Below the pieces are notes generated by a model. That model saw only the letters and a list, made by a program, of their open reading frames with translations. It made no database searches and had not been told where the DNA came from. Source: Candidatus Fervidifonticultor quintus (GTDB lineage: Bacteria > Sysuimicrobiota > Sysuimicrobiia > Sysuimicrobiales > Humicultoraceae). Taken from it: 18,887 nt of DNA. Where the stretch lies: positions 1-18,887 of the forward strand of contig JAVKIJ010000063.1 of assembly GCA_031459535.1 (NCBI GenBank). The letters run 5' to 3'. The stretch's first letter is position 1. Every line of letters begins with the position of its first letter. Both the position numbers and the translations under genes were made by a program. Positions 240-18,614 of the stretch are shown piece by piece.

Positions 240-312
240 GGCGCTCACCTCCAGAGACCCCCGTGGTCATTTCACGCTGAATACCACCGCGCGTCAAGCG
301 CTGTAGGGCTAC

Positions 313-341
313 TTGCACAGGTCAGGGTGAGGCGCTACTCT
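313..341 (+). promoter_or_regulatory. Putative sigma70-type promoter for the cupredoxin gene
   Basis: TTGCAC (313-318), 17-nt spacer, TACTCT (336-341) in the divergent intergenic region. Confidence 0.45.
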
Positions 342-398
342 TGCGGAGGTGGTTCGCCGCTTGCGCGGCACAATACTGTGGGAGGAGGCAGGAGTCGA

Positions 399-878: not shown

Positions 879-905
879 GCTAGCCAGGCCGGACACTGGC
901 ATTCT

Positions 906-948
906 GCCGGCGAGGGGCGGGGGTAGTCCGCCCCTCGCCGGCTTTGCT
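906..948 (+). terminator. Intrinsic terminator after the cupredoxin gene
   Basis: Perfect 15-bp stem GCCGGCGAGGGGCGG (906-920) / CCGCCCCTCGCCGGC (928-942), 7-nt loop, then TTTGCT. Confidence 0.75.
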
Positions 949-1081
949 CCAGACCTTCGGACGTCGGGTGTTCCCCTGATGCCAAATCAGGTCCAGGCTG
1001 GATTGTGGGCGGCAACCCCGAGGGGTACCGTCGGAAACAAGAGTAAACGGGTAAGAATATCCGGATTCTTGAGGACGACCC

Positions 1082-1525
1082 ATGGAGTTGAGCCGAGCCG
1101 CCCAGTTCGCCATCCGCACCGTCGTGGACCTGGCGGCGGTAGGGCCCACCCGGACGGCCGACATCGCCGCTCGCCGTGGCATCCCGCCTGCGCAGGCCGG
1201 AAAGATTGTGCAGCAGCTCGTGCGTGGCAGCATTGTGCGCACCACCCGGGGGGCGGCCGGCGGCGTGCGCCTGGCACGGCCGGCCGAGCGGGTGACGCTG
1301 AAAGAGGTCATCAACGCCGTCGAAGGCCCCCTGGCCGTCTCCCGGTGTATTGTCTACGACGACTGTCCCTGTGTGCAGCCCTGCCCCGTTCGTACAGCCC
1401 TGAGCCGGATTCAGCACGAACTTGAGCGCCTGTTGGACGGCGTGACCGTCGCCGACCTGGCAAGAGACGACAGGCGTCCGCGACGATCGGCCGGTGCGCC
1501 TGACGGAAGCGACATCGACGCATGA
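1082..1525 (+). CDS. Rrf2-family (IscR/NsrR-like) transcriptional regulator, probably Fe-S binding
   Basis: wHTH with RGAAGGVRLARPAERVTLKEVINAVEG signature, Cys cluster C-x5-C-x-C-x3-C, RBS GAGGA. Confidence 0.92.
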   Translation: MELSRAAQFAIRTVVDLAAVGPTRTADIAARRGIPPAQAGKIVQQLVRGSIVRTTRGAAGGVRLARPAERVTLKEVINAVEGPLAVSRCIVYDDCPCVQPCPVRTALSRIQHELERLLDGVTVADLARDDRRPRRSAGAPDGSDIDA

Positions 1526-1538
1526 AGGGAGGACGGAC

Positions 1539-3521
1539 ATGACGCGATTGACGTTGACGCTGACCGCGGTGGTCGTGGCCGCGCTGCTGGTGACCGGCGC
1601 TTATCTGCTCGGGGCCCGCTCGGCCTCCGGGTTGGCGGGACTGGCCGAGGCTGCCCAGATTGCCCAGGCCCGTCAGCTCGGGCCCGACGCCGTGAGCGCA
1701 GCCGTGCGAAGCTTCGTCCCGCCGGGAAAGCAAGACGAGTACCTGATGTTCTCGTCCGGCGGCCACTCGGGCCAGATCCTGGTCATCGGCATCCCGTCCA
1801 TGCGGCTGCTCAAGGTGATCGGCACGTTCTCCACCGAACCGTGGCAGGGATTTGGCTATGGGGCTGACTGGTCTCAGAAGGTGCTGGAAGGCGGCTCCAA
1901 CGGTAGCGCGGCCCCGCTCACATGGGGGGACACCCACCACCCGGCGTTGTCTGAGACCAACGGCGACTATGACGGCCGGTGGGTCTACATCAACGATCGA
2001 GCCAATGGCCGGATCGCCATGGTCGACCTGCGCGACTTCCGCGTCAAGCAGATCGTGAAGATCCCCAACATGATGACCTCGCACGGCGGGGTGTTCGCCA
2101 CGCCCAACACCGATTACGTCCACGTGTCCAGCAAGATCCCCACTGTCTGGGGTGGCGGGTACGCGCCGTTGGAACAGTACAAGGACAGGTACCGAGGCGC
2201 CTCCGCGTGGCTGGCCGTGGACAAGGCGACCGGGCGGATCGACCTCGCCCGATCTTTCCAGATTGAACTGCCCCCGTACAACCAGGACCTGGCTGATGCG
2301 GGCAAGCTGGCCAGCGACGGATGGGGCTTCATCAACTCGTACAACACCGAGATGGCCACCGGCGGCAACATGGAGGGCAAGCCGGCCATCGAGGCCGGGG
2401 CCTCGGCCCGGGACTTCGACTTCCTGCACATCATCAACTGGAAGAAGGCCGAGCAGACACTCGCTGCGGGCAAGTTCGAGATGCGCAACGGGATCAAGGT
2501 CATCCCGCTACAGACGGCGGTGGCGGAGGGCCTGCTGTATTTTGCGCCCGAGCCGCGCAGCCCGCACGGCGTGGACGTGGCGCCCAACGGTCAGTACATC
2601 GTCGTCTCCGGCAAACTGGACCCGCACACCACGGTCTACAGTATCGACAAGATCAAGGCGGCCATCGAGAGGAAGGATTTCGAGGGCACCGATCCCTTCG
2701 GCGTGCCCATCCTCAGGTTCGACGCGGTGGTCGCTGCCCGGGTGGCGGTGGGCAACGGCCCTCTGCACACCCAGTTCGACGATAAGGGCTACGCGTACAC
2801 CAGCCTGTTCGTGGACAGCGCCGTCGCCAAGTGGTCGCTGGGCGAGCCCTACCACAAAGGCGACGCGGCCTGGAAGCTGGTGGACAAAGTCTCGGTGCAC
2901 TACAACATCGGGCACCTCTCGGTTGCCGAGGGCGACACCGTCAGCCCCGACGGCCGGTACCTCGTGGCGCTCAACAAGTGGTCGGTGGACCGCTATCCGG
3001 TCCTGGGCCCGCTGCACCCGCAGAACTTCCAGCTCATCGACCTGACCGGGCCCAAGATGAGGATCGTCTATGACATGCCCATTCCCATCGCCGAGCCGCA
3101 CTACACGCAGATCGTCAAGCTGGACAAGATCAAGGCCTGGCAGGTCTATCCTATGGGTACAGACATCCTGACCATGGAGCGCAGCCCTTATGCTACCGAG
3201 CGCGGCAAGGAGCGCATCGAGCGGAAGGGCAACACGATCGAGGTATGGATGACCGCGGCCCGCAGCAACTTCCGGCCGGACATCGTGCGGGTCAAGAAGG
3301 GCGATGTGGTCGTCCTGCACATCACCAATACCGAGAAGATCCGCGACGCGACCCACGGCTTCGCGATACCGGACTACAACATTCAGATGAGCGTTGATCC
3401 GGGCGAAACCGTCACGGTCAGGTTCGTGGCATCCAAGCCCGGGGCGTTCAGCTACTACTGCACCGAGTTCTGTTCGGCGCTGCACCTGGAGATGCAGGGC
3501 TGGCTGTTGGTGGAGCCCTAA
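1539..3521 (+). CDS. nosZ: Nitrous oxide reductase, clade II (Sec-type), no cytochrome c extension
   Basis: RBS AAGGGAGGA then ATG 1539. Hydrophobic N-terminus has no twin-Arg. Motifs: SGGHSGQ; CuZ His in DTHH, SHGG, SPHG, PLHT, NIGH, EPHY; CuA THGF and YCTEFCSALHLEM at the C-terminus. Confidence 0.98.
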   Translation: MTRLTLTLTAVVVAALLVTGAYLLGARSASGLAGLAEAAQIAQARQLGPDAVSAAVRSFVPPGKQDEYLMFSSGGHSGQILVIGIPSMRLLKVIGTFSTEPWQGFGYGADWSQKVLEGGSNGSAAPLTWGDTHHPALSETNGDYDGRWVYINDRANGRIAMVDLRDFRVKQIVKIPNMMTSHGGVFATPNTDYVHVSSKIPTVWGGGYAPLEQYKDRYRGASAWLAVDKATGRIDLARSFQIELPPYNQDLADAGKLASDGWGFINSYNTEMATGGNMEGKPAIEAGASARDFDFLHIINWKKAEQTLAAGKFEMRNGIKVIPLQTAVAEGLLYFAPEPRSPHGVDVAPNGQYIVVSGKLDPHTTVYSIDKIKAAIERKDFEGTDPFGVPILRFDAVVAARVAVGNGPLHTQFDDKGYAYTSLFVDSAVAKWSLGEPYHKGDAAWKLVDKVSVHYNIGHLSVAEGDTVSPDGRYLVALNKWSVDRYPVLGPLHPQNFQLIDLTGPKMRIVYDMPIPIAEPHYTQIVKLDKIKAWQVYPMGTDILTMERSPYATERGKERIERKGNTIEVWMTAARSNFRPDIVRVKKGDVVVLHITNTEKIRDATHGFAIPDYNIQMSVDPGETVTVRFVASKPGAFSYYCTEFCSALHLEMQGWLLVEP

Positions 3522-3539
3522 TTTAGCCTCCCGCGATGC

Positions 3540-3566
3540 GGGGGAGGGGCTGCTCGACCCTCCCCC
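3540..3566 (+). other. Intergenic stem-loop between nosZ and nosL
   Basis: GGGGGAGGG (3540-3548) pairs with CCCTCCCCC (3558-3566); no U-tract follows. Confidence 0.55.
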
Positions 3567-3579
3567 CGGGGGATGCGCG

Positions 3580-4059
3580 ATGGCAGTCACACGGAGACGG
3601 TTTCTCTACCTGGCGGCCGCCGCAGCCGCGGGGACCGCGGCCGCTCCCGCAGCCTGGGCGCTGCTTGGCCGCGCGCCCGTCGAGGTCGGCCCGCCGACCA
3701 TCCGCTACGGCCGCGACCGGTGCGACGCCTGCGGGATGATCATCAGCGACCCTCGCTACGCAGCTGCGGCGTGGAGCGGCGCGAGCGCTTCCCGCTACGA
3801 CGACATCGGATGCCTGATCGGCCGCATGGGGCAGGCCCTGGCAAGCGGCAAGGCTGCGGCGTACGTCCACGATGCCTCCAGCCAGGAATGGCTGGAAGCC
3901 GAGTCGGCCGTCTTCGTGCGTTCACCGGCGGTCCACACGCCGATGGCATCGGGCATTGCCGCGTACGCCACTGGCGAGGTCGCGGCCCGCGCGCACCCCG
4001 GCGCCGAGCTGCTGACCTTCCAGGCCCTGCTGGGCACGGGAGGCCGGGCGCCGTCATGA
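3580..4059 (+). CDS. nosL: NosL-family copper chaperone with twin-arginine-type leader
   Basis: Start MAVTRRRFL at 3580. Motifs CDACGMII, YDDIGC, W-x-x-A-x-x-A-x-F-V and TPM; lies directly after nosZ. Confidence 0.88.
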   Translation: MAVTRRRFLYLAAAAAAGTAAAPAAWALLGRAPVEVGPPTIRYGRDRCDACGMIISDPRYAAAAWSGASASRYDDIGCLIGRMGQALASGKAAAYVHDASSQEWLEAESAVFVRSPAVHTPMASGIAAYATGEVAARAHPGAELLTFQALLGTGGRAPS

Positions 4060-6026
4060 TGGCTGGCGCGCGCGAGCGGCGCGTCGTGGCCATGGCAGTG
4101 GGGCTGGCGTTCCTCCTGCTCGCGGCCGGCGCGCTGCTGCCGCTGTGGTCGATGACCCTTTACGCACCCCAGTACGTCAACGGCCTCCGGTTGACCATCG
4201 AGGGCCGCGGTGTGCGCGGCGACGTAGACGAGCTCAACGCCCTCAACCACTACATCGGGATGCCCCCCATCCGCCAGGAGGACATTCCCGAGGCGCGGCT
4301 CTTCTACCCGGCAGTGGCGGCGATCGCAGTCGGCCTGCTCCTCGTGCCGTTCATGCCGTGGCGGCCCTTCCGGTGGCTGGTGCTCTTCGGAGCGTGGGCG
4401 CTGCCGCTGGCCTTCCTGGCAGACCTGCAGTGGCGGCTCCACACCTTCGGTCACAGCCTGGACCCCAAGGCCGCCTTCCGGCTGCCGCTGTTCACGCCGA
4501 AGGTGCTCGGCCCCACGGTCGTGATGAACTTCAACGTGATGGCGATACCCGGCGCAGGCCTCCTCCTGCTGCTGCTGAGCGCGCTGGTGGCGACCTTTGG
4601 GCCGCGTCTGGCCAGCCGGGGACTGCACTGGCGCCGCGCCGGGGCGAGCATGGGGCTGGCAGCCACGGCGGCGCTGGTGCTGGCGCCGGCAGCGCCAGCG
4701 TCGACCTTGGCGCGGGTGCCGGTGGCTGGCTTCGACCTGCGGGCCGCCGTTGCGGCTGCCGCGCCGGGTGCGGTCCTCGATGTGCCCCCCGGCCTTTACG
4801 ATGGCCCCCTGGTTTTGACCAGGGCCATCACGCTGCGGGGAGGAGGCCAAGCGGTCATCGACGGCGGCGGCCGCGGCGACGTAGTGGTGATCGCCGGCGA
4901 CGATGTGCACCTGGAGGGCTTCGTCGTCCGCGGCAGCGCCCTGGTGTTCTCCAGGGAAGCGGCGGGCATCGTGGTGCGCGGCGCCCGGGCCGTGGTGCGC
5001 GACAACCGGATCGACGACGTGTTGTTCGGTATCTACCTGGCCGGCGCGCGCGACGCGGTGCTCGAGGGCAACGTTGTGCGCGCCGCCGACCTGCCGGTTG
5101 AACGGCGGGGCCATGCCATCTACCTGTGGCGCGCCCATCGCAACCACCTCCGGGCCAACCACGTGCTCCGCGGCAAGGACGGGATCTACATCTCGTTCTC
5201 GGATGACAATACCGTCGAGGACAACCGGATCAAGGGATGTCGCTACGGCATCCACTACATGTACGCGAACCGTAACACGTTCCGGCGGAATACGTTCGAG
5301 GACAATCTGGTTGGGGCCGCGGTCATGTACTCCACCGACGTGACCCTCGACGGCAACATCTTTGCCGGGAGCCGCTCCTCGGCCGCCGGCACCGGTCTGA
5401 TCTTCAAGGACGCCGACCGGCTGCTCGTACGGTCGAACCGCGTGGTCCGCAACCGCATCGGGATGGAGTTCGACAACACGCCGGCGACCATCGGGAGCTG
5501 GGCACGGGTCGAACGCAACCTGATCGCCTTCAACGAGATTGGCTTCAACCTGATGAGCACGGCGGCGATCACCGCCACGGAGAATGTCATTGTCGAGAAC
5601 CTGCAGGCGGTGCGCTGGCGCGGCGCCGCCACCTCGGGCGGCAACCGGTGGGCTGCAGGCGGCAGGGGCAACTACTGGGGCGACTACGCCGGCTTCGACG
5701 CCACGGGCGACGGGATCGGTGATGTCCCATATCGGAGGACGGACCTCCTGGAGGGTCTGGCCGGCCGGGCGCCTGCGCTGCAGGCGTTCCTGTTCACCCC
5801 CGCGCACCTAGCGCTGGAGGCCGGCGTGCGGCTGGTGCCGCTGGTCCGGGCGGAGCCGGTCGTCGAGGATCCGGCACCCCTGTTGCGTGCCCCTCATGTG
5901 CTGACCGGTAGCGGCCCGGAGAAGGCCGCCACCACGGGCGTCGACCTGTTCGTGACCGGGCTGGGGATGCTGGTGCCCGGGGTTGCGGGTCTGGTGGGGT
6001 TGCGGCTCTGGAGGCGCCGGCCGTGA
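4056..6026 (+). CDS. nosD: Fusion of NosB-like membrane protein (N-terminal) and NosD maturation protein (C-terminal, beta-helix)
   Basis: ATGA overlap with the nosL stop. N-terminal part has PLW..TLYAPQY..GL, ELNALNHYIGM and FGHSLDP plus 4 TM segments (clade II NosB-like). C-terminal part has GHAIYLW, DGIYISFS, RYGIHYMY and GNYWGDYAGFDATGDGIGDVPY (NosD), then a C-terminal TM segment. Confidence 0.9.
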   Translation: MMAGARERRVVAMAVGLAFLLLAAGALLPLWSMTLYAPQYVNGLRLTIEGRGVRGDVDELNALNHYIGMPPIRQEDIPEARLFYPAVAAIAVGLLLVPFMPWRPFRWLVLFGAWALPLAFLADLQWRLHTFGHSLDPKAAFRLPLFTPKVLGPTVVMNFNVMAIPGAGLLLLLLSALVATFGPRLASRGLHWRRAGASMGLAATAALVLAPAAPASTLARVPVAGFDLRAAVAAAAPGAVLDVPPGLYDGPLVLTRAITLRGGGQAVIDGGGRGDVVVIAGDDVHLEGFVVRGSALVFSREAAGIVVRGARAVVRDNRIDDVLFGIYLAGARDAVLEGNVVRAADLPVERRGHAIYLWRAHRNHLRANHVLRGKDGIYISFSDDNTVEDNRIKGCRYGIHYMYANRNTFRRNTFEDNLVGAAVMYSTDVTLDGNIFAGSRSSAAGTGLIFKDADRLLVRSNRVVRNRIGMEFDNTPATIGSWARVERNLIAFNEIGFNLMSTAAITATENVIVENLQAVRWRGAATSGGNRWAAGGRGNYWGDYAGFDATGDGIGDVPYRRTDLLEGLAGRAPALQAFLFTPAHLALEAGVRLVPLVRAEPVVEDPAPLLRAPHVLTGSGPEKAATTGVDLFVTGLGMLVPGVAGLVGLRLWRRRP

Positions 6027-6922
6027 TCGCCATCACCAACCTAGGAAAGCGGTTCGGCGCCTTCGTGGCGCTGGACGGCATCACCACCGCGATTGGCCGG
6101 GGCGCATTCACCCTGGTGCTCGGCGCCAACGGCGCGGGCAAGACCACCCTGTTGCGGTGCGTTCTGGGCTTGGCTGCCTTCGACGGTACCGTGACCGTGG
6201 GCGGCTACGACGTCTCCGCCGATGGCTCGGCCGCCCGGTCGCTGGTGGGCTATGTGCCCCAGCGTCCGGCGCTGCCGCCGGACCTGAGCTGCCTCGATGT
6301 CCTCGATCTGTTCGCCCGCCTGCGTGGGCGGCGCTCCGGTGACCCCGCGTGGCTGGAGAGGGTGGGGCTGGCCGCCGAAGCGTCCGCGCCCGTGCGCGCC
6401 CTGTCGGGCGGCATGCGCCAGCGCCTCGCACTGGCGGTGGCGTTGCAGGCGGATCCGCCGGTCCTCGTGTTCGATGAGCCCGCCGCGCACCTGGACGGCG
6501 CGTCGCGCCGGGCGCTCCATCGAGATCTCGCGGAACTGGCCCGTGGCGGCCGGACCGTGGTGCTGGCGACGCACCTGGCCGCGGAGCCGCTCCAGGTGGC
6601 CACGCAGGCGCTCGTCCTGCACCGCGGGCGCCTGATTTATGATGGTCCCGCAGACCGGCTGGGAGAAGCCGTCCAGCAACGGGTCGTGTTTGCGATGAAC
6701 GGCGTGGGTCGGGAACCCCTGCGGACGGCCCTGGCCAGCATGCCCGATGTACACGTGAGTGAAACGCCGGATGCGATTATCGCGACGACACCGGCTGGAG
6801 GAGCCTTTGCGCTCCTGGCGGCGGTCGCCGCCGCGGGCGTGCGGCCGTTCGAGGTCCACGTGGAGGAACCCATGGTGGATCCCGCGCGGCTCGTCCGGGC
6901 CAACGGGGAGACCAGGCGATGA
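6023..6922 (+). CDS. nosF: ABC ATPase NosF
   Basis: Walker A GANGAGKTT, signature LSGGMRQR, Walker B VLVFDEP, H-loop; GTGA overlap with nosD. Confidence 0.92.
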   Translation: MIAITNLGKRFGAFVALDGITTAIGRGAFTLVLGANGAGKTTLLRCVLGLAAFDGTVTVGGYDVSADGSAARSLVGYVPQRPALPPDLSCLDVLDLFARLRGRRSGDPAWLERVGLAAEASAPVRALSGGMRQRLALAVALQADPPVLVFDEPAAHLDGASRRALHRDLAELARGGRTVVLATHLAAEPLQVATQALVLHRGRLIYDGPADRLGEAVQQRVVFAMNGVGREPLRTALASMPDVHVSETPDAIIATTPAGGAFALLAAVAAAGVRPFEVHVEEPMVDPARLVRANGETRR

Positions 6923-7749
6923 GGACCTTGGGCGTCCTGGTCGGGCACGAACTCCGTGAAGCCGTCCGACACCGGTGGTTGGTGGGGTACGGTGTGCTGT
7001 TCGCCGCTCTGGCCCTGGGGCTCGCCCTGATCGGCCCGCGGATCTCTGGCGCCGTGGGGCTCGAAGGCTACGGTCGCACCACGGCCAGCCTTCTCAACCT
7101 CTGCCTGACCCTGGTGCCGCTGATTGCCCTGCTGTTGGGCAGTGTGGGACTCTCGGGCGACCGGGAAACCGGCGTGCTCGAGCTGTTCCTGGCGCAGCCG
7201 GCCAGCCGCGCGCAGTTGCTCATCGGGCGTTTCGCAGGCTCGCTGGCCGCCATCGGGCTCGCCACGCTGCTCGGGTTCGGGATTGCCGGCGCGCTGATCG
7301 GCCTGGCCACCGGGGCCGCCGGCGGCCTGCAGTACGCGGCGTTCTTGGGCATCGCGCTCGCCCTGGCCGCGGTCTTCCTCGCCATCGGGAGCGCCATCGC
7401 CGTCATGTCGCGCAACCGTGTGCAGGCCATCGCGCTCGCCCTCGCCGCCTGGTTTGCCGCGGTCGTCGTCTTCGATCTGGCGCTGATTGCTGCGGGAGCC
7501 CTGGTCGGCGCCGGGGTGGGGGCGCTCGCCGCCGCGGTGCTGCTGAATCCCGTCGAAGTCGCGCGGATCCTGGCGCTGCTGCTGCTCGATCCGGGCCTGG
7601 AGGTTCTCGGCCCGGTAGGTGGATTCCTGGTGGCGCGGTTGGGAACCGCCGGGACCGCCGCCCTGCTGATGACCGCCCTGGCCGCCTGGGTGACCGCACC
7701 GCTGCTCGCCGCGCTGGCGCTGTTTGAGACCCGCGATCCTCTGACCTAG
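6919..7749 (+). CDS. nosY: ABC permease NosY
   Basis: Multi-TM protein with RTTASLLNL..LVPLIALLLG, DRETGVLELFLAQP and LLNPVE motifs; ATGA overlap with nosF. Confidence 0.9.
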   Translation: MRTLGVLVGHELREAVRHRWLVGYGVLFAALALGLALIGPRISGAVGLEGYGRTTASLLNLCLTLVPLIALLLGSVGLSGDRETGVLELFLAQPASRAQLLIGRFAGSLAAIGLATLLGFGIAGALIGLATGAAGGLQYAAFLGIALALAAVFLAIGSAIAVMSRNRVQAIALALAAWFAAVVVFDLALIAAGALVGAGVGALAAAVLLNPVEVARILALLLLDPGLEVLGPVGGFLVARLGTAGTAALLMTALAAWVTAPLLAALALFETRDPLT

Positions 7750-10055: not shown

Positions 10056-10772
10056 ATGCTGGTGCGCGACCGCATGTCCAGTCCGGCCATCGTGATCGAC
10101 GTCGACGCGTCCATCGCCGAGGCGCACACGCTCATGCGCCAGCACGATATTCGGCGGCTGCCGGTGCTCAAGCGCGGACGGCTGGCGGGTATCGTGACCT
10201 GGACCGACCTCATGCGTGCTGAACCGTCCCCTGCTTCCACGTTGAGCGCGTTTGAGGTGCCGTCGCTGCTCAGGTCGGCGCGGGTTGGCGAGATCATGAC
10301 CCCCGAGCCGATCACGATCGGACCCGATGCCCCCATCGAGGCTGCCGCGGTGATCATGCGGCGTGAGAAGATCGGGGGCCTCCCGGTGACCCAGGGTCAG
10401 ACCCTGCTGGGCGTGGTGACCGAGAGCGACATCTTCGAGGCGTTCATTGACCTCACCGGGCTGCGCAGGGGAGGGGCGCGGCTGGTGGTGGATCTGTCCG
10501 GACGGACGAACCCGATCGCGGGCATCGCGGCCATCGTCGAGGCCAGTGGGGTGGCCCTGACATCGCTGGCGACGTACCAGCAGGAAGGTCGCCAGCTAGC
10601 CGTGGTGCGAGTGGACGCGCCCTACCCGCTACACGTGGTGCAGGCGCTGAGCGACGGAGGCTTTGCGGTGCTGCACCTGGCGGCCGCGCCCGAGGCTGCG
10701 GACGACGCGCGAGGCAGCCGACGGCCGTACGAGGAGTACACGAAGGCCTGGGTCACGGAGCGGCAGCACTAG
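10056..10772 (+). CDS. CBS-pair plus ACT-like domain protein (AcuB-like)
   Basis: Start MLVRDRMS. Motifs IRRLPV..GRLAGIVT..DL and KIGGLPV...LLGVVTESDIFEAFIDLTG, then a C-terminal ACT-like alpha/beta domain. Confidence 0.85.
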   Translation: MLVRDRMSSPAIVIDVDASIAEAHTLMRQHDIRRLPVLKRGRLAGIVTWTDLMRAEPSPASTLSAFEVPSLLRSARVGEIMTPEPITIGPDAPIEAAAVIMRREKIGGLPVTQGQTLLGVVTESDIFEAFIDLTGLRRGGARLVVDLSGRTNPIAGIAAIVEASGVALTSLATYQQEGRQLAVVRVDAPYPLHVVQALSDGGFAVLHLAAAPEAADDARGSRRPYEEYTKAWVTERQH

Positions 10773-10792
10773 GCCGGGCCCACGACAACCAA

Positions 10793-10874
10793 TCCTGGCG
10801 ACGGTGGTGGCGCAGACCCTCCTCACCCCCCGTCGGACAACCGATGCGGAGACTGCGCCGTCGCCTCGCCAGGA
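10793..10874 (+). other. Long structured intergenic element (candidate ncRNA or 3'UTR structure)
   Basis: 10793-10801 pairs with 10866-10874, and 10803-10815 pairs with 10853-10865 (three G-U pairs). Inner hairpin at 10831-10846; CU-rich segment at 10817-10830. Confidence 0.45.
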
Positions 10875-10878
10875 AAGT

Positions 10879-10906
10879 CCAGCGACCGCCGCCCGGCGGT
10901 CGCTGG
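10879..10906. terminator. Hairpin between convergent genes, probable bidirectional terminator
   Basis: Perfect 12-bp stem CCAGCGACCGCC / GGCGGTCGCTGG, followed by TGTT on + and ACTTT on -. Confidence 0.6.
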
Positions 10907-10928
10907 TGTTCCTCGGGGTCGAGCAGGG

Positions 10929-11312
10929 TTAGCGTGATCGGGGCTGGAGCGGACAGAGGACGCCGGAGAAGGACCGGTTCCTGGCCCACGCCTCCCAGGC
11001 CTCGTCACCCAGTGCGGCCCGCATGGCGGCTGAGACCAATCGTTCCCCCGGCGCCGCATCGTGCGCGGTGAACAGCAGCAGCAGATGACAGGGGAACTCG
11101 GGACAGACCCCGCAGTGCTCCACCCCACGCTGCCGGGCGCAGGCGTAGACCGGGCAGATGTTGCGCAGCTCGACCTCCTCCTGCCGTGAGCACGACGGGA
11201 CGTGTTCCTCAAACCAGGCATCGCCCTCGAAGCGCGCGCCGCAGATGCCGGCGAACCGGCGACCGCCGAGTTCGCGCTCGGCGCGGCGGATGGCCTCCTC
11301 AGCGGTAGACAT
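10929..11312 (-). CDS. Cys-rich small protein, DUF3795-like
   Basis: Start MSTAEE after RBS AAGGGGGG; CPVYAC..RGVEHCGVCPEFPC motif; 8 Cys in total. Confidence 0.7.
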   Translation of the reverse strand: MSTAEEAIRRAERELGGRRFAGICGARFEGDAWFEEHVPSCSRQEEVELRNICPVYACARQRGVEHCGVCPEFPCHLLLLFTAHDAAPGERLVSAAMRAALGDEAWEAWARNRSFSGVLCPLQPRSR

Positions 11313-11418
11313 GCGAATCCCCCCTTGGTCACACCGTATGGCGGTCGCCGGCTGGTGTCCATCGAGTCCCGAGAGTATGTCCACGGTTGGGACGATGTGT
11401 CATACTGGCGATGCAACC

Positions 11419-11652
11419 ATGTGTCTCGCGGTACCGTACCGCCTGGTGGAGATCCGCGGCCCGGGGCGCGCGTTGGCCGAAGGGCCCGATGGCGTGCGCG
11501 AGATCTCCACGGAGCTGCTCGACGCGCCGGCCCCCGGCACGTATGTGCTCGTGGCCTACGGCGCCGCGGTCCGCGAGATCGACCCCGCCGATGCCGCACA
11601 GTTGCGCGGGCTCCTGGCGGCCATGCAGGCGGCGTCTGAGGATCTGCCCTGA
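11419..11652 (+). CDS. hypC: HypC/HybG/HupF-family hydrogenase chaperone, atypical (no conserved His)
   Basis: N-terminal MCLAVP and PGTYVLVAYGAAVREID; 77 aa; in hydrogenase context. Confidence 0.82.
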   Translation: MCLAVPYRLVEIRGPGRALAEGPDGVREISTELLDAPAPGTYVLVAYGAAVREIDPADAAQLRGLLAAMQAASEDLP

Positions 11653-11657
11653 GTACC

Positions 11658-11678
11658 GCCCGCGCCGCCGGCGCGGGC
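11658..11678 (+). other. GC hairpin downstream of hypC
   Basis: GCCCGCGCC (11658-11666) / GGCGCGGGC (11670-11678); no U-tract follows. Confidence 0.4.
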
Positions 11679-11793
11679 ACCGCCCCGGTCCTTCCCCCTA
11701 GGCGCTGACCCGGAGACCCACCTACGGCGGAATCCACTGTAGGACCGATGGTGGCTCGCAGGCCCAGACGGTATCGTGGCAATGGAGGACGCT

Positions 11794-12576
11794 GTGGCGC
11801 AGCAGCATCAGTCTCTTGTCGCCCCACCCGTAGATCGGACAGCGGTGCGCGATTCATCGCTGGACGGGATGCGCCTGTTTGCCCGGTTCGCGTTCCCACC
11901 TAATCGCCTGGGGTACTGCGGGGCCGACGTCAACACCGAGATCCTTGGCTACCTCCAATCCGGCACGGCCGACGAAGGGCTGCGGCGTCACCTGCGGACT
12001 TTTGCTGCGGCCTATCCGTACCTGGAGCTGATCGCCCGGTGCAATGGCATTGCCGATCCGTTCGACGTTCGGGTCGTGGAGGCGTACTGGATCGGGAACG
12101 CGTTGCTGGAGCGTGTGGACTGGGCCCGCTACGCTCGGGACCTGCACGAGCGGTTTCGAGGGCGTGCCTCGCCCGCGACCATGGAACTGTTGGTGGGCAA
12201 GCCGCCGGCCGGCGCGCGGGCCCACCACGCCTTCCACGTGTTCGACGTCTCCCGGCGCCTGGGGCTGCCGCACGGCGATCTGGCCCTGGATCTGTGCCGC
12301 ATCGCATGGGGGACGATCACCGCCGTCGAGCCCGGGGCCTTCGTGGTGTCCTACCGGCCCATCGTCATCCAGGCCGGCCGGCTCGCATTTGGCGATCCTC
12401 GGCCGGAGCGGGTGCTGCGGGCGCTGGAGGTGGATCCCGACCTGGACGGCGCCGCGCCCGGTGATGTGCTGGCTTTCCACTGGCGGTGGGCCGCCGTCCG
12501 CTTGCGGCCCGATCAGGTGGCCGCCCTGGAGCGGTATACGCGCGGCATGATGGCGCTGGCCAATCAGACGTTCTGA
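11794..12576 (+). CDS. DUF6390-like uncharacterised protein in the hydrogenase maturation cluster
   Basis: GTG 11794 after GGAGGA (alternative start 11776). Motifs PPNRLGYCG, YPYLELIA, VVEAYWIGN, HHAFHV, CRIAWG and FHW. Family name is from memory. Confidence 0.7.
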   Translation: MAQQHQSLVAPPVDRTAVRDSSLDGMRLFARFAFPPNRLGYCGADVNTEILGYLQSGTADEGLRRHLRTFAAAYPYLELIARCNGIADPFDVRVVEAYWIGNALLERVDWARYARDLHERFRGRASPATMELLVGKPPAGARAHHAFHVFDVSRRLGLPHGDLALDLCRIAWGTITAVEPGAFVVSYRPIVIQAGRLAFGDPRPERVLRALEVDPDLDGAAPGDVLAFHWRWAAVRLRPDQVAALERYTRGMMALANQTF

Positions 12577-12586
12577 ACGAACTGCG

Positions 12587-12832
12587 ATGCACGAGGTGGC
12601 GGTGGCGGAGGCACTGTTGCAGCAGGCGGCGGAGGCGGCCGAGCGCGCCGGGTTGACCGTGGTGCAGAACGTGGGAGTCTGCGTGGGCGAGCTCAGCGGC
12701 GTCGCCCCCCAGGCACTGGCGTTCGCATTCGAGATCCTGCGCAGTGGTCCCATGCTGGGAGGGGCGTCGCTCCAGATCCGCGCGACGGCCGGCGACGACC
12801 TGCACCTGGAGTGGGTCGAGGGGGAGTCGTGA
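12587..12832 (+). CDS. hypA: Hydrogenase nickel chaperone HypA, short form lacking the Zn-finger
   Basis: N-terminal MHE, VGELSGV...ALAFAF, GASLQI and C-terminal GDDLHLEWVE; only 81 aa, no CxxC. Confidence 0.85.
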   Translation: MHEVAVAEALLQQAAEAAERAGLTVVQNVGVCVGELSGVAPQALAFAFEILRSGPMLGGASLQIRATAGDDLHLEWVEGES

Positions 12833-13500
12833 TGCGAGTCGAGGTCCTCGAGCGCGTCCTGCGGGCCAATGACGCGCTGGCAGCGGAGGTCCGCGCCATG
12901 CTGGACCGGGCCGGAACCGTGGCGATCAACGTCATCGGGTCCCCCGGCAGTGGCAAGACCGCGCTGCTGGAGCAGACGGCGGCCATTCTGCATCCTCGGG
13001 TGCGGCTGGGTGTCATCGAGGGCGACATCGCCACCACCCGGGACGCCGAGCGTATCGCCCGGTGCGGTGTGCCGGCGGTGCAGATAGAGACCCGGCTGGT
13101 GGGCAACGCGTGCCATCTGGACGCCAACCTGGTTCGGTCGGCCTTGCAGCGGCTGCGGCTTCCAGAGATCCAGGTGCTGTTCGTGGAGAACGTCGGCAAC
13201 CTGGTCTGCCCGTCGGCGTACGATCTGGGAGAGCACTTGCGCGTGGTGGTGGCCAGCGTGCCCGAAGGCGATGACAAGCCGCGCAAGTACCCCGCCACCT
13301 TCGCACGGGCCTCGGCGGTGGTGCTGAACAAGGTGGACCTGTTGCCGGTGACGGACTTCTCACTGGCGGCGTTCACCGAGGGCCTGCGCGAGGTGGCAAC
13401 CGCGCCGCTCTTCCCGCTCTCGGCGCGCACGGGTGAGGGGCTGGGCACCTGGATCGCCTGGGTTGAGGCCCAGCGCGAGGTGATGCAGAGGGTGGGATGA
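12832..13500 (+). CDS. hypB: Hydrogenase nickel-insertion GTPase HypB
   Basis: TGATG overlap with hypA; GSPGSGKT, ACHLDA, ENVGNLVCP, EGDDKPRKYP, NKVD. Confidence 0.96.
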   Translation: MRVEVLERVLRANDALAAEVRAMLDRAGTVAINVIGSPGSGKTALLEQTAAILHPRVRLGVIEGDIATTRDAERIARCGVPAVQIETRLVGNACHLDANLVRSALQRLRLPEIQVLFVENVGNLVCPSAYDLGEHLRVVVASVPEGDDKPRKYPATFARASAVVLNKVDLLPVTDFSLAAFTEGLREVATAPLFPLSARTGEGLGTWIAWVEAQREVMQRVG

Positions 13501-13991
13501 GCATGACTGGCGAGACCGGAGGAAACGTGGTCCTCGACGCGCTGCGCACAAGCCCCCTGTTTGGATTCCTGGAGTCTGCGCACCTGGAGAAGCTCGTGGC
13601 CTTCGCCCGCGAGGTGTCCTGGCCGCCAGACCGGGTGATCTTCCGCGAGGGAGAACCGGATGACAAGCTCTATCTGGTGCTGGAAGGTCTGGTGGCCCTG
13701 GACATCTACGTGCCGGGCCGCGGCCGCGTCACGATTCTGACCATCGGCCCGCAGGAGGTCCTGGGGTGGTCGGCGGCGGTGCCGGAGGTGGAGAAGAAGA
13801 CCGCCAGCGCCCGCACCCTGCAGCCCACGCGCGCCATCGCCATAGACGCCTCAGCGCTCCATGCGGCCTGCGAGCAGGATCACGATCTCGGCTATCACGT
13901 CTACCGGACGCTGGCCAACGTGATTGCCAGCCGCCTGAAGGCCACGCGCCTGCAGCTGCTGGACGTGTACGGGGTCAGCGAGAGGACGTGA
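13497..13991 (+). CDS. Stand-alone cyclic-nucleotide-binding-fold (Crp effector-like) protein, no HTH
   Basis: IFREGEPDDKLYLVLEGLV, GPQEVLGWS, TASART; 164 aa; ATGA overlap with hypB. Confidence 0.88.
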   Translation: MSMTGETGGNVVLDALRTSPLFGFLESAHLEKLVAFAREVSWPPDRVIFREGEPDDKLYLVLEGLVALDIYVPGRGRVTILTIGPQEVLGWSAAVPEVEKKTASARTLQPTRAIAIDASALHAACEQDHDLGYHVYRTLANVIASRLKATRLQLLDVYGVSERT

Positions 13992-13999
13992 GGGAATCG

Positions 14000-15121
14000 A
14001 TGCCCGCCCGTACCCCGTCGCTGGGCGCCCACGTGGTCATCCCGAAGCCGGCGCTCCAGCATGTCTTCGATGCCCTGCGCGATGCCGGTTACACCGTGAT
14101 CGGTCCCACCGTGGCCCAGGGGGCCATTGTCTATGACAAGATCACCCAGGTAGCCGATCTGCCCATCGGATGGACCGACGAGCAGGGCCCCGGCACGTAC
14201 CGGTTGCGCCGCCAGGCCGATGGGCGGTACTTCGGGTTCGTGGTCGGTCCCCATTCGTGGAAGAAATACCTCTACCCGTCGCGGCTGAGACTCTTTTCGG
14301 TGCACCGCGACGGGGACGGATTTGCCGTGCAGGCCGATGGGGAGACTCCGCCCAAGTACGCGTTCATCGGCGTTCGGGGTTGCGAGATGGCCGCCATCGC
14401 AGTGCAGGATCGGGTCTTCCTGGAAGGCGCGGTCTGTGACCCGTACTACAAGGCTGCACGCCAGGTGGCATTCCTGCTGGCCGTCAACTGCGTCGAACCG
14501 CATGCCACGTGTTTCTGCGCCTCCATGAAGACCGGCCCGCGCTGCGCCTCCGGGTTCGACCTGGCCCTGACCGAACTGGCCGATGCGTTCGTGCTGGAGG
14601 TCGGCTCGGAGCTCGGCGCTCAGATGCTAGTCGGCGTCGACTGGCGGCCGGCGGGCGCCTTTGAGTTGAGCCACGCCCGGCGGCTGCTGGCCGAGGCCGA
14701 GACGAAGATGGGCCGAACCCTGGAGACCCGCGACCTCCCCGATCTCCTCTACGAGCGCCTCGAGCACTCCCGGTGGGCCGAGGTGGCGCTGCGGTGTCTG
14801 TCCTGCGCCAACTGCACCATGGTCTGCCCGACGTGCTTCTGCGCCGACGTGCACGAGGTCTCTGACCTCACCGGAGAGACCGCGGCCCGCGTGCGGGTGT
14901 GGGACTCGTGCTTTGATCGCGACTTCTCCCATGTCTTCGGCGGTAACCTGCGGCCCAACATCCGCGCCCGCTACCGTCAGTGGTTGACCCACAAGCTCGC
15001 GGCCTGGATCGATCAGTTCGGCGTCTCTGGCTGCGTGGGATGCGGCCGGTGCATCACGTGGTGCCCGGTTGGCATCGACCTGACCGAGGAAGTGGCCGCG
15101 ATTAGGGAGGAACCCGAATGA
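14000..15121 (+). CDS. hyhB: Group 3b hydrogenase (sulfhydrogenase) beta subunit, 4Fe-4S dicluster protein
   Basis: [44 protein letters not shown]. Start ATG 14000 (alternative GTG 13988). Confidence 0.92.
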
Positions 15122-15987
15122 GTGCGGTGCAGGTCACCGCAACTGGGCCCCCGGCCGCAGTTCACCCGATGGTCCCCTGGCCGGCGATCATCACCCAGAT
15201 CCAGCCCGAGGCGGCAGGGATCGCCACCTACACGCTGGAGTTCCGGGACCCCGCGGTGCGAGAGGCGTACCGGTTTCGGCCAGGGCAGTTCAACATGCTG
15301 TACGTCCCGGGGATCGGGGAGTCGGCCATCTCCATCAGTTCGGATCCCGCGGAACCGTCCAGCCTCCGGCACACCATTCGCCTCGCCGGCAACGTCACCC
15401 AGGCCATCGGGCGGTTGACCGCCGGCGACTGGATCGGCGTCCGCGGGCCGTACGGGAGCCAGTGGCCGATGGACCGGGCCCTGGGCAGGGATCTCATCAT
15501 CGTCGGCGGTGGGATCGGGATGGCGCCCCTGCGGCCGGCGATCTATTACCTCATCAGGCACCGGGCCCAGTACGGACGGGTGACCATTCTGATCGGGGCC
15601 CGGACGCCTGCGGACCTACTCTACCCGCAGGAGTACGACGTCTGGCGCGGCCACGACATGGACGTGGTGGTTACCGTGGATCGAGCCGACGAGACCTGGA
15701 AGGGCCGGGTGGGTGTCGTCCCGATCCTCTTCTACTCCCTGCGACCCGATCCCAGGCGCACGACGGTCTTCACGTGCGGGCCCGAGATCATGATGCGGTT
15801 CGTCATCTACGAAGCCCTGGCCCGGCGCATTCCCAAGGACGCCATCTTCCTGTCCCTGGAGCGCAACATGAAGTGCGCCGTGGCGTTCTGCGGCCGTTGC
15901 CAGTACGGGCCGGTCTTTCTCTGCAAGGACGGCCCGGTCCTCAGCTACGACCGCCTCGAGCCGTTCTTTGGTGTGGAGGAGTACTGA
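15118..15987 (+). CDS. hyhG: Group 3b hydrogenase gamma subunit (FAD/NAD(P)-binding, 2Fe-2S)
   Basis: [46 protein letters not shown]...CKDGPV. Confidence 0.93.
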
Positions 15988-16799
15988 TGGCCGCACCCGG
16001 AAGGCGTCCCCCGACCCTGGCGGTGTTCAAGTTCGCGTCCTGCGACGGCTGTCAGCTCTCGCTGCTGGATTGCGAAGACGAACTGCTGGCCGTGGCAGGG
16101 CAGATGGACATCGCCTACTTCCCCGAGGCCCGGCGCCGCGCGGTCGCCGGGCCCTATGACCTGGCGCTGGTCGAGGGATCGGTGACCACGGCGGAGGAGG
16201 TCGAGCGTATCAAGGAGGTGCGCCGGCAGTCCCGGATGCTGGTCACCATCGGGGCATGCGCCACCGCGGGCGGCATCCAGGCGTTGCGCAACTGGGCCGA
16301 CGTGGCCGAGTTCGCCCGCGTGGTCTATGCCAGCCCCGAGTACATTCACACCCTGGCGCACTCCAGGCCGATCAGCGACTTCGTGCCCGTGGACTTTGAA
16401 CTGCGCGGGTGCCCGATCAGCAAGGCCCAGCTCCTGGAGCTGATCACCTCCGTGCTCGTGGGCCGCAGGCCACAGACGCCCGCGCACAGCGTGTGTGTGG
16501 AGTGCAAGCGGGGCGGGACCGTGTGCGTTATGGTCGGCTCGGGCATCCCGTGTCTGGGCCCGGCCACCCAGGCGGGCTGCGGGGCCATCTGCCCGGCCTA
16601 CGGGCGCGGATGCTACGGGTGCTTCGGCCCCATGGAGCTGCCCAACGGGGTAGCCCTGGGGACCCGCTTCCTGACCCTGGGCCAGGCCCCCGGGGACGTG
16701 GTACGGGCCTTTAGGCTCTTCAATGGCTACGCGCCGGCATTTCGGGCGACCAGCCAGCGTTTCGGCCGGGGTGCTGTTGCCGATCAATCGGGGGAATGA
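15987..16799 (+). CDS. hyhS: Group 3b [NiFe]-hydrogenase small (delta) subunit
   Basis: TGATG overlap; [55 protein letters not shown]. No export signal. Confidence 0.93.
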
Positions 16800-18103
16800 G
16801 GTCGATGGCCCAGCGGCGGATCAACGTGGACTATCTGGCCCGCGTGGAGGGCGAGGGCGCCTTGCGCGTGGTCCTCGAGGACGACCGGGTGAGCGACGTG
16901 CAGCTCAACATCTTCGAGCCACCCCGGTTCTTCGAGGCGTTTCTGCGCGGCCGGTACTTCCAGGAGGCGATTGACATCACCGCGCGCATCTGCGGTATCT
17001 GCCCAGTCGCCTACCAGATGAGCGCGGCCCACGCCCTGGAGAAAGCCCTGGGGATCGCCCCGCCGCCGGGCGTGCGGGCGCTGCGGCGCCTGTTCTACTG
17101 CGGCGAGTGGATCGAGAGCCATGTGCTACACATCTTCATGCTGCACGCGCCCGACTTCCTGGGGCACGAGTCATCCATCAGCATGGCCGCCGATCCCGCG
17201 CTGCGGCCGTGGGTCGAGCGGGCGCTGCGGATGAAGAAGATCGGCAACCACCTGATGACGGTGATCGGCGGCCGGGAGATTCATCCGGTCTCGGTGTGCG
17301 CCGGCGGGTTCTACCGCGCACCCCGTCGCGCCGATCTGACGGCGCTGGCGCCAGATCTGGCCTGGGGGCTCGAGACCGCCGTCGCTGCCGTCCGGTGGGC
17401 CGCCGGCCTCGCGTATCCCGACTTCGCCCCCGACTACGAGTTCGTGTCCCTGTCCCATCCCGACGAGTACCCGATGAACGAAGGCCGGGTTCGGTCCTCG
17501 CGCGGGCTCGATATCCCCGTCGAAGCCTTTGAAACCCACTTCACCGAGCTGCACGTAGCGCACTCCAATGCCTTGCACTCGTGCCGCGCCGATACCCAGA
17601 CCAGCTACATGGTCGGACCACTGGCCAGAGTGAACCTCAACTTCGACCGGCTGTCGCCTGCGGCGCAGGCGGTCGCGCGTGAGGTCGGGCTGCGGCTCCC
17701 CATTCACAACCCGTTCATGAGCCTGCTGGCGCGCGGGCTGGAGACCGTGCACGCCTTCGAGGAGGCCCTTGCGCTCGTCGAAGGGTACTGGCCGCCCGAC
17801 CCGCCCGCCACACCGGCGGCACTGCGGGACGGTGAGGGCGCACACGCGACCGAGGCCCCCCGCGGGCTGCTCTACCATCGGTACCGAGTGGGCGCCGACG
17901 GGCTGATCACGGAGGCCAGGATCGTGCCGCCCACCGCCCAGAACCTCAAACGCATGGAGGACGACCTCTGGCAGTTCGTCCCGAACGTCCTGCACCTGCC
18001 GCAAGACGAGGTCACGTGGCGGTGTGAGCAGCTCGTCCGCAGCTACGATCCGTGCATCTCGTGCGCGACCCACTTCCTGAAGCTGCAGATCGATCGGCGC
18101 TAG
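16796..18103 (+). CDS. hyhL: Group 3b [NiFe]-hydrogenase large (alpha) subunit
   Basis: RVEGEG, L1 [26 protein letters not shown]2 [12 protein letters not shown] plus short C-terminal extension FLKLQIDRR. Alternative start 16805. Confidence 0.97.
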
Positions 18104-18110
18104 GGCTGCC

Positions 18111-18614
18111 ATGGGCGCCACAGCCCCCGCCGTCCTCATCATCGGCGTGGGAAACGACGATCGGGGAGACGATGCTGCGGGACTGCTGGCGGCACGGCGG
18201 GTCCGGGCCCAGCTCGCTGCGCGCCCGGCGTCTGGCGCCGGGGTGGCCGTGGTCGAGTGCACCCGTGATCCGACCACCCTCACGGAGGTGTGGGAAGGCG
18301 CAGGGCTGGTCTTCCTGCTGGACGCTGTCCAGTCCGGCGCCCCCCCGGGCACGATCCGGCGCTTCGAGGCGGGCACGGAGCCGCTGGTGGTGGGACGGGG
18401 GCGCGGTTCCACCCATGCCCTCGGCGTGGCCGAGGCTGTTGAGCTTGCCCGGGCCCTCGGCCGGCTCCCGCCCCGGCTGATTGTCTACGGGATCGAAGCC
18501 ACAACCTTCGTTCCGGGTACGCGACCCACGCCCGCCGTCGACGAGGCGGCGTCGGAGGTCGCCGGCCGCGTCCTCGGCGAGATCCCCCACGAGCTGATCA
18601 CCCCAGGAGCCTAG
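18111..18614 (+). CDS. Hydrogenase maturation endopeptidase
   Basis: IIGVGNDDRGDDAAG, LLDAV, STHALG, VYGIE; directly follows the large subunit. Confidence 0.93.
   Translation: MGATAPAVLIIGVGNDDRGDDAAGLLAARRVRAQLAARPASGAGVAVVECTRDPTTLTEVWEGAGLVFLLDAVQSGAPPGTIRRFEAGTEPLVVGRGRGSTHALGVAEAVELARALGRLPPRLIVYGIEATTFVPGTRPTPAVDEAASEVAGRVLGEIPHELITPGA

Follow-up and report, generated by a model that had tools for sequence, protein, structure and literature searches.

Assembly of [NiFe]-hydrogenases is thought to be explained by the HypA-F proteins together with a few lineage-specific helpers, a view drawn mainly from Proteobacteria and archaea. Here we describe a gene at 11794-12576 on the + strand of an 18,887-nucleotide stretch of DNA from Candidatus Fervidifonticultor quintus (contig JAVKIJ010000063.1; this whole stretch is called the window), which encodes a protein of the Pfam family DUF6390 (PF19927). 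No paper naming this family was found in the literature searched. Our analysis establishes that the C-terminal domain of the protein is homologous to the hydrogenase maturation protein HypC, and DUF6390 is probably an unrecognized metal-handling helper for nickel-iron hydrogenases. An earlier reading of the window from its letters alone (the sequence-only reading) had already proposed a hidden HypC-like domain in this protein.

The closest described proteins are HypC, HybG, and HupF (PF01455, TIGR00074). HypC is a single domain of about 75-110 amino acids (aa) that starts with Met-Cys, so that the mature chain begins at the essential Cys. It binds HypD and the precursor of the hydrogenase large subunit, and it carries the Fe(CN)2CO unit. 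The conserved His of its GDxVLVH motif is His51 in E. coli numbering. HupF retains the N-terminal Cys. CooT, an accessory protein of CO dehydrogenase, is a small HypC-like β-barrel dimer in which a Cys close to the N-terminus binds Ni(II). The HupF of Rhizobium leguminosarum, a second HypC paralogue, is extended by about 24 residues at its C-terminus; it interacts with both HupL and HupK and shields HupL when oxygen is present (PMC3534401).

In its structure model, DUF6390 resembles these proteins in having a predicted C-terminal barrel of the oligonucleotide/oligosaccharide-binding (OB) type followed by a helix. Its Cys stands just before strand 1 and its His within GDxVxxH, both aligned in register with those of HypC, and its gene occurs in hydrogenase clusters, where it usually comes directly behind a genuine hypC. 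Unlike HypC, the DUF6390 protein of the window is 266 aa long with a separate 150-residue N-terminal domain (N-domain), and its Cys is residue 174, in mid-chain. The C-x-x-x-P-G of HypC becomes C-R-I-x-W-G, and the hhalign alignment places a hairpin insertion of about 13 residues in the barrel. DUF6390 is also linked to transporters and fused to DNA-binding domains, whereas we know of no HypC fused to a DNA-binding domain.

Like HupF, DUF6390 is a second HypC-type protein beside hypC with an extended HypC fold, and both occur in organisms that make hydrogenase in air. DUF6390 differs in that its extension is an entire N-terminal domain, which brings two further invariant ligands. The binding of HupF to HupL and HupK is a measured property. 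CooT offers a precedent for a HypC-like fold handling nickel, with one domain where DUF6390 has two. It was absent from the Pfam families listed for the 98 relatives described below (25 of 38, at E ≤ 1), from the PDB profile matches, and from the 50 listed Foldseek matches, so no specific relationship to CooT was shown. A regulatory analogy may be drawn with NikR and nikABCDE, as a fusion of PadR to DUF6390 lies directly before genes for a Nik-type ATP-binding cassette (ABC) system in loci L027 and L043. The fold and family of this fusion are entirely different from those of NikR, and most DUF6390 proteins have no DNA-binding domain.

The DUF6390 Gene

The open reading frame (ORF) of DUF6390 spans 11776-12576 (+) and encodes 266 aa counted from the farthest GTG, at 11776, which is residue 1 in the numbering used here. 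The gene is placed at 11794-12576, with a GTG start 5 nt past a GGAGG; GTG 11776 and ATG 11782 are alternative starts. The product matched PF19927 with 202.4 bits, well above the gathering score of 25, and an E-value of 1.1e-59; the match covers residues 29-265 of the protein and positions 3-240 of the 244 in the profile. The scan of the window ORFs gave no NCBIfam model for this protein, and the Pfam scan gave no DNA-binding domain. Homologues were numerous: 3251 of 5296 word-sharing candidates at E ≤ 1e-3, or 1061 cluster representatives at 50% identity, 102 of them with E ≤ 1e-30.

The strings that the sequence-only reading had singled out (CRIAWGTITAVEPGAFVV, PGDVLAFHWRWAAVRL, GYCG, and HHAFH) are all present in this ORF, and its two key codons are in frame: Cys174 is TGC at 12295-12297 and His235 is CAC at 12478-12480. 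The N-terminal all-helical domain occupies 11857-12297 (+; residues about 28-174) and contains Cys48 (codon 11917-11919), His151 (codon 12226-12228), and, in the same HHAFH motif, His150 and His154. The HypC-type OB domain and terminal helix follow at 12295-12564 (+; residues 174-263) with Cys174 and His235, the latter in the His235-Trp236 pair (12478-12483) of a GDxVxxHW motif.

HypC Homology of the C-Terminal Domain

Homology was assessed with alignment A2, comprising 98 full-length DUF6390 representatives with 29-68% identity to the window protein, and with an alignment of 46 HypC sequences, made up of the window HypC and HypC ORFs found beside DUF6390 in other genomes. With the last 97 columns of A2 as one input and this HypC alignment as the other, hhalign returned a probability (Prob) of 96.3, P 1.5e-9, and a score of 47.8 over 63 columns. 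In this register Cys174 falls on the HypC Cys and GDxVxxH on the HypC GDYVLV[H]. In contrast, none of 60 column-shuffled HypC alignments exceeded Prob 7.9 or a score of 17.9, and the N-domain of DUF6390, used as an internal control, gave Prob 0.3.

Searching 177,635 distinct PDB sequences with the A2 family profile at E ≤ 10 gave three matches, and every one was HypC/HupF: 2z1c (E 0.069), 3vyr (E 0.079), and 3d3r (E 1.2). Cys and His were again in register, with CRIsWGkV over CLAVPGKV and gdlVslHWgw over GDWVIVHTGF. The Pfam family HupF_HypC (PF01455) was matched by 19 of the 98 relatives at E ≤ 1, the best at 4e-7, against 3 of 98 for the next foreign family, and by 6 of 12 locus homologues (E 0.0054-0.28). 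The window protein itself had no PF01455 match at E ≤ 1 and stayed below the HypC family cut-off. As a single query against the PDB sequences, it gave one irrelevant match (E 1.4), so that HypC was found only by the family profile.

The structure model pointed to the same fold. The top Foldseek match of the AlphaFold2 (AF2) model in the PDB was 2z1c_B, HypC of T. kodakarensis (E 0.015, prob 1.00), and template modeling scores (TM-scores) relative to the target were 0.61-0.77 for 2z1c. HypC chains 2z1c, 3vyr, 3vys, and 3vyt were among the top matches (TM-score 0.53-0.77, E 0.015-0.05), the last three coming from HypC-HypD and HypC-HypD-HypE complexes. These E-values are weak, none being ≤ 1e-3, and OB folds of a generic kind, among them the PAN N-domain and ribosomal proteins, scored nearly as well. 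ESM Atlas look-ups with the N-domain and the C-domain gave no usable match.

Profile-profile, PDB profile, Pfam, and Foldseek tests thus agree that the C-terminal domain is homologous to HypC, bearing out the hidden domain plus helix that had been proposed. DUF6390 stands outside the HypC family as currently defined, because it fails the hidden Markov model cut-off, has two domains, and carries its Cys internally. Chance or convergent likeness between small β-barrels, with DUF6390 unrelated to HypC, is very improbable: it could appeal to the weak Foldseek E-values (best 0.015), to the nearly equal generic OB folds, and to the missing PF01455 match of the window protein at E ≤ 1, but four independent sequence and structure tests rank HypC first with a clean shuffle control, the functional residues are in register, and the DUF6390 genes adjoin genuine hypC genes.

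Invariant Residues and Structure Model

Only seven columns of A2 are invariant: C48, G49, F76, H151, C174, H235, and W236. The sole invariant residues of ligand type are therefore C48, H151, C174, and H235, each conserved in 98 of 98 sequences. Three others are partly conserved, H154 in 89, C240 in 77, and H150 in 67 of the 98. Because they are invariant, the Cys and His at HypC's own positions (Cys174 and His235) and one residue from each N-terminal motif (C48 of GYCG and H151 of HHAFH) are exactly the residues frozen by selection, and these are the ones to which the sequence-only reading had drawn attention. Residue 240, five residues past the invariant His, is Ala in the window protein (12493-12495) and Cys in P0003, its closest homologue.

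The AF2 model built from A2 had a predicted local distance difference test (pLDDT) value of 93.2 and a predicted TM-score (pTM) of 0.88. In this model residues 1-27 are poorly ordered, 28-174 are all helical, 177-243 form seven strands, and 245-263 form one long helix. The N-domain modeled alone from 80 sequences reached pLDDT 83.6, and Foldseek found no fold match for it in the PDB (best E 1.6, prob 0.03). Complex prediction for the large subunit (alignment A4) with DUF6390 (A2) scored 0.00 against a mark of 0.32, which gives no answer either way.

Several apparent variants with a different C-terminus (P0261, P0240, P0157, P0195, P0199, and P0224) were dropped. Their C-termini are Arg/Pro/Gly/Ala-rich tails typical of frameshifted reads, and so they provide no evidence for a free-standing N-domain. 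A fusion to a HypC fragment (P0236) was dropped along with these apparent C-terminal variants.

Genomic Context across Relatives

To place the gene in its wider context, one-genome-per-species contigs were searched with two peptide patterns from a closer alignment, A1, which gave at least 600 matches and at least 590 confirmed relatives. The best 80 of these relatives, a nonrandom sample, were taken with up to 10 kb of flank each. The 80 loci came mostly from Chloroflexota and otherwise from Armatimonadota, Dormibacterota, Actinomycetota (including Arthrobacter sp. ISL-72), Patescibacteria, Spirochaetota, and Bacillota.

By tblastn with window proteins as queries, 54 of the 80 loci have a hydrogenase or hyp gene within 10 kb. 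Adding the clustered neighbors raised this to 61 of 80, and among the 38 loci flanked by 5 kb or more on each side it was 32. The 61 loci are a very large excess by rough estimate, a hydrogenase cluster covering well under 1-2% of such genomes.

For a census of neighbors, ORFs within 5 kb were clustered and 40 of the 54 recurrent-cluster representatives were scanned. HypC was present in 46 of the 80 loci, on the same strand in 45 and directly upstream of DUF6390 in 23. Other maturation and structural neighbors were HycI (44 loci), the large subunit (37), HypA (28), and HypB (about 15). An EamA transporter occurred in 34 loci, directly upstream of DUF6390 in 14, and a family-5 solute-binding protein with permeases and ATPases in 20. 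NifU-Rieske (17), DUF6084 (12), and DUF5947 (11) also recurred. The usual gene order is large subunit, HycI, (HypA, HypB), HypC, [EamA], DUF6390, [ABC transporter]. DUF6390 keeps its place downstream of hypC, where the maturation genes meet the transporter. Two neighbor clusters (1 and 2) were discarded as antisense ORFs, and c21 and c34 were rejected as conserved neighbors, since they overlap the DUF6390 gene in another frame and have no family match.

The hydrogenase clusters around DUF6390 are of the 3b type, of a group-1 type with cytochrome b, and of a type with NifU-Rieske, DUF5947, and DUF6084. The last set is presumably that of actinobacterial high-affinity (group 1h) clusters. Neither hypD, hypE, nor hypF was among the 40 scanned representatives, and no hupK-like gene was seen among the recurrent neighbors. 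His was present at the aligned position in 12 of the 46 neighboring HypC proteins, all taken from beside DUF6390; the others had Tyr (15), Asp (9), Ser (5), Ala (2), Asn (2), or Gln (1).

DUF6390 is thus widespread, occurring in hydrogenase clusters of at least three types and in six or more phyla. Its hosts include soil phyla credited with atmospheric H2 uptake as well as Patescibacteria with tiny genomes, and the family places the functional residues of HypC in a new setting. In Patescibacteria, EamA, DUF6390, and a small HycI-like gene face the 3b structural genes, and no hyp gene lies within 5 kb. In five of the six patescibacterial loci (L037, L054, L059, L064, L076, and L078), DUF6390 is followed by this small gene, which encodes about 125 aa. 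Its product had no Pfam or NCBIfam match, and its GNxDL, D-x-V-x-G, and HDFD motifs recall the HycI/HybD endopeptidase.

Transporter Link

The transporters beside DUF6390 are of two kinds. For the ABC kind, a fused ATPase ORF exceeded the curated cut-offs of both NikE (373.8 vs 332.55 bits) and NikD (329.4 vs 318.7 bits), and judged by such profile scores the system looks like a nickel importer. EamA (34 loci) and the Nik-type ABC system (20 loci) were found together in 0 loci, a pattern with a hypergeometric P of 1.6e-6 if the loci were independent, which they are not fully. On a quick maximum-likelihood tree of DUF6390, the EamA/ABC label still requires 5 changes, 4 of them being forced by well-supported branches, compared with 16.4 in shuffles. 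EamA and the ABC system have therefore been swapped several times. Among known EamA proteins, CntI-type transporters are exporters.

A conserved protein of about 400 aa with the motif W-C-C-H-G-H is encoded just downstream of DUF6390 in L017, L026, L027, L039, L041, L045, and L061, between DUF6390 and the Nik-type transporter genes. It gave weak ThuA-like Pfam matches and may be another metal-binding protein.

Fusions to DNA-Binding Domains and EamA

Fusions were examined in 14 odd-length representatives out of 150 listed. Helix-turn-helix (HTH) fusions were found in 6 of the 14, from five families: XRE twice, PadR, GntR, MarR (C-terminal), and ArsR. Of the rest, two carried EamA, one a HypC fragment, and five DUF6390 only. 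Because several DNA-binding families captured it independently, DUF6390 appears to act as a signal-receiving domain.

The PadR fusion was also present in 3 of the 80 loci (L027, L029, and L043), which form one clade. In L027 the Nik-type genes come directly after it, with NifU and DUF5947 further on. In L043, from Dormibacterota, it lies between genes for phosphoribulokinase and RuBisCO (large and small subunits) and the Nik-type genes; this stretch (L043:4991-9184) hints at a shared neighborhood of CO2 fixation and H2-oxidation supply genes. Fusions of EamA to DUF6390 made up 6 of 11 homologues longer than 466 aa, in addition to P0130 and P0223. Each of these is a single record, and some are possibly gene-calling errors.

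The sequence-only reading did not include the association with transporters (EamA or Nik-type ABC), nor the fusions to EamA and to five kinds of DNA-binding domain. These features point at least as much to the sensing or hand-over of imported metal as to an iron scaffold.

Proposed Function and Alternatives

That DUF6390 combines a HypC-homologous domain with an accessory role for hydrogenases can be stated with high confidence. Beyond this, we favor a Cys2His2 metal-binding accessory protein on the HypC fold, most likely handling or sensing nickel, and give this reading a probability of about 0.42. Its parts differ in strength. Metal binding at Cys48, His151, Cys174, and His235 is likely. Nickel rather than iron or zinc at the putative site is a tentative assignment, and we are equally guarded about the joint proposition of one interdomain site, an imported metal, and that metal being nickel.

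In the mechanism that we propose, Cys48, His151, Cys174, and His235 would come together as a single Cys2His2 metal site where the two domains meet, and the N-domain would cover the face by which HypC meets HypD. The site would take up imported metal, most probably Ni(II). Free DUF6390 would receive nickel from the importer side and either deliver it to HypA/HypB and the HypC-loaded large subunit or gate how they use it. In the HTH-fused forms, DUF6390 would supply the metal sensor of a repressor that acts on the nik and hydrogenase operons.

Several points weigh against the nickel reading. The role of DUF6390 is read from sequences, a model, and gene neighborhood, and we infer, rather than observe, that the four invariant residues meet in space. 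Cys2His2 sets also serve as classic structural zinc sites and may bind a [2Fe-2S] cluster, and HypC, the closest homologue of the OB domain, handles iron rather than nickel. The most constant neighbor is hypC (46 loci), compared with 28 loci for hypA and about 15 for hypB. EamA transporters are not known to carry nickel, and the best match of the solute-binding protein, NikA, reached 151 bits against a cut-off of 393. The HTH fusions are a small minority, at 6 in the 14 scanned of the top 150 representatives and 3 of the 80 loci. Six full-flank loci have no hydrogenase gene within 10 kb, and no other nickel enzyme was found in those six. The loci themselves are the best 80 of at least 590, a nonrandom set in which the excess of hydrogenase neighbors is a rough estimate.

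A more far-reaching version, which we regard as unlikely as a whole, would make DUF6390 the founding member of a nickel-binding module that joins the HypC fold to a new helical domain, acting in hand-over from importer to HypA/HypB and in HTH-fused nickel repressors, with EamA as a new transporter of nickel or a nickel chelate that replaces NikABCDE. If so, this hand-over would serve the hydrogenases of Chloroflexota, Dormibacterota, Actinomycetota, Armatimonadota, and Patescibacteria, including those of atmospheric-H2 oxidizers, and the forms fused to PadR, XRE, GntR, MarR, or ArsR would be a new class of nickel-responsive repressors.

The best-surviving alternative is that DUF6390 is a HypC-type iron chaperone, in which the Cys174/His235 face together with Cys48 and His151 would bind Fe or Fe(CN)2CO, or else keep the apo large subunit in an open state. 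Such a chaperone would then work beside, or compensate for, an adjacent HypC that often lacks the conserved His. The homology to HypC with functional Cys and His retained speaks for this, as does hypC being the most constant neighbor (46 of 80 loci, 45 on the same strand, 23 directly upstream). The His, always present in DUF6390, occurs in only 12 of the 46 neighboring HypC proteins, although all 46 stem from beside DUF6390 and this low count may be nothing special. HupF is a precedent for a second, extended HypC paralogue with a role of its own (PMC3534401). Even so, we consider an iron chaperone less probable than the nickel reading, though still a serious contender. The Cys of HypC is the first mature residue, whereas that of DUF6390 is internal behind a 150-residue domain, and a HypC-like grip on HypD is disfavored for this reason; the N-domain probably also covers the HypD-binding face. 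None of hypD, hypE, and hypF was among the 40 scanned recurrent-cluster representatives, and an iron chaperone leaves the DNA-binding fusions, the EamA fusions, and the either/or transporter pairing unexplained.

DUF6390 might instead be a redox, oxygen, or small-molecule sensor whose Cys/His set, mostly with Cys240 and His154, holds an iron-sulfur cluster or iron and tunes hydrogenase expression or maturation. We give this little weight. Repeated fusion to DNA-binding domains does mark a signal-receiving module, Cys240 (77 of 98) and His154 (89 of 98) are available besides the four invariant ligands, and aerobic H2 oxidizers are among the hosts, with phosphoribulokinase and RuBisCO genes just upstream in L043. 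However, no cluster-binding motif of a known type is present, residue 240 of the window protein is Ala, most members lack a DNA-binding domain, and the constant transporter neighbor and the EamA fusions remain unexplained.

A similarly small chance attaches to the four residues being just a structural zinc staple. DUF6390 would then act as adaptor or regulator for the neighboring transporter (EamA or ABC), which might carry something other than a metal, and the link to hydrogenase would be indirect. Cys2His2 is the commonest structural zinc set, EamA fusions exist, and in L021, L031, and L069 EamA-DUF6390 pairs occur with no hydrogenase gene within 10 kb. Yet 61 of the 80 loci are hydrogenase loci, and the keeping of precisely the functional Cys and His of HypC is unexpected for a mere staple. 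The minimal loci of Patescibacteria, moreover, retain EamA, DUF6390, and the small protease-like gene beside the hydrogenase structural genes.

The sequence-only reading had seen in DUF6390 a scaffold or chaperone of a variant maturation pathway for group 3b hydrogenases. Its HypC-type domain and its tie to hydrogenases stand, as both the OB-fold likeness to HypC and the enrichment beside hydrogenase genes (61 of 80 loci) were found. The restriction to group 3b has to be given up, since group-1-type clusters with cytochrome b and NifU-Rieske/DUF5947/DUF6084 clusters carry the gene too. A variant pathway without hypD, hypE, and hypF does not follow, as these genes are merely not recurrent near DUF6390. 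Carriage of Fe(CN)2CO was not borne out, the Cys being internal and not N-terminal as in HypC.

A metal hand-over or sensing protein, whether for nickel or iron, would add a step to hydrogenase maturation. It would explain how metal import is coupled to hydrogenase assembly in DUF6390 hosts, and DUF6390 would be a likely requirement for producing such hydrogenases in other hosts. The HTH-fused forms would then be a new family of metal sensors, and its EamA partner a candidate for a new kind of metal transporter.

Other Features of the Window

The + strand of the window is tiled by genes, and 23 ORFs were scanned (22 on +, one on -). The DUF6390 gene lies, as had been noted, between a His-less hypC and a hypA-hypB pair, which the ORF and family scans confirmed. 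The hypC gene (about 11419-11652, +) encodes 77 aa from MCLAVP and matched PF01455 (E 1.5e-15) and TIGR00074 (54.4 bits vs a cut-off of 48). Its product reads VLVAYGAA, with Ala in place of the usual conserved His of HypC. After the hypC stop codon, at about 11655-11685 (+), a GC-rich inverted repeat, CCCGCGCC...GGCGCGGG, lies within the 141-bp gap that separates hypC from the DUF6390 gene; it lacks a T run, and the terminator scan missed it. The promoter and terminator scan of 10700-13600 gave nothing useful.

The hypA gene (12587-12832, +) encodes a short form of 81 aa that covers positions 1-67 of 112 in the PF01155 profile and falls below the NCBIfam cut-offs. This short HypA retains the MHE nickel-binding N-terminus, and its CxxC...CxxC zinc domain is entirely absent. 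The same form occurs in the four closest relatives (L001-L004), in L012, and in L032. Zinc-less HypA was rejected as a companion of DUF6390: the HypA-cluster ORFs without any CxxC are seven (L001-L004, L012, L032, and one ORF of L017 that is unlike HypA), whereas 22 other ORFs of the cluster hold at least two. The hypB gene (12811-13500, +) matched TIGR00073 from residue 9 (242.3 bits vs a cut-off of 121.2), and its probable start, ATG 12832, overlaps the hypA stop. HypD, HypE, and HypF domains were absent from the 23 scanned ORFs, in agreement with what had been read from the sequence.

The hydrogenase region (13497-18614, +), as delimited by Pfam and NCBIfam scans, includes a cNMP-binding-domain ORF, four hydrogenase subunits (Fer4_22, FAD/NAD-binding, small, and large), and an endopeptidase. 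The best NCBIfam matches of the large subunit (16796-18103, +) are sulfhydrogenase alpha subunits, below cut-offs, and for this reason the hydrogenase fits group 3b. The HycI-type endopeptidase gene follows at 18111-18614 (+; Pfam and NCBIfam scans). The cNMP-binding-domain ORF (13497-13991, +; Pfam scan) adjoins the Fer4_22 subunit gene and may encode a regulatory subunit or a regulator. A small ORF of this kind beside a 3b-type Fer4_22 gene was also seen in L001, L002, L004, L034, L038, L066, and L067.

Upstream, at 3-7749 (+), lies a nitrous-oxide reductase (nos) set comprising a cupredoxin, NosZ-like, NosD, ABC ATPase, and ABC-2 permease genes. Genes for Usp, a DsbA-like thioredoxin, and a CBS protein separate it from hypC. 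The nearest relatives come from Armatimonadota-type metagenome-assembled genomes, and the nos genes upstream of the hydrogenase region are retained in L004.

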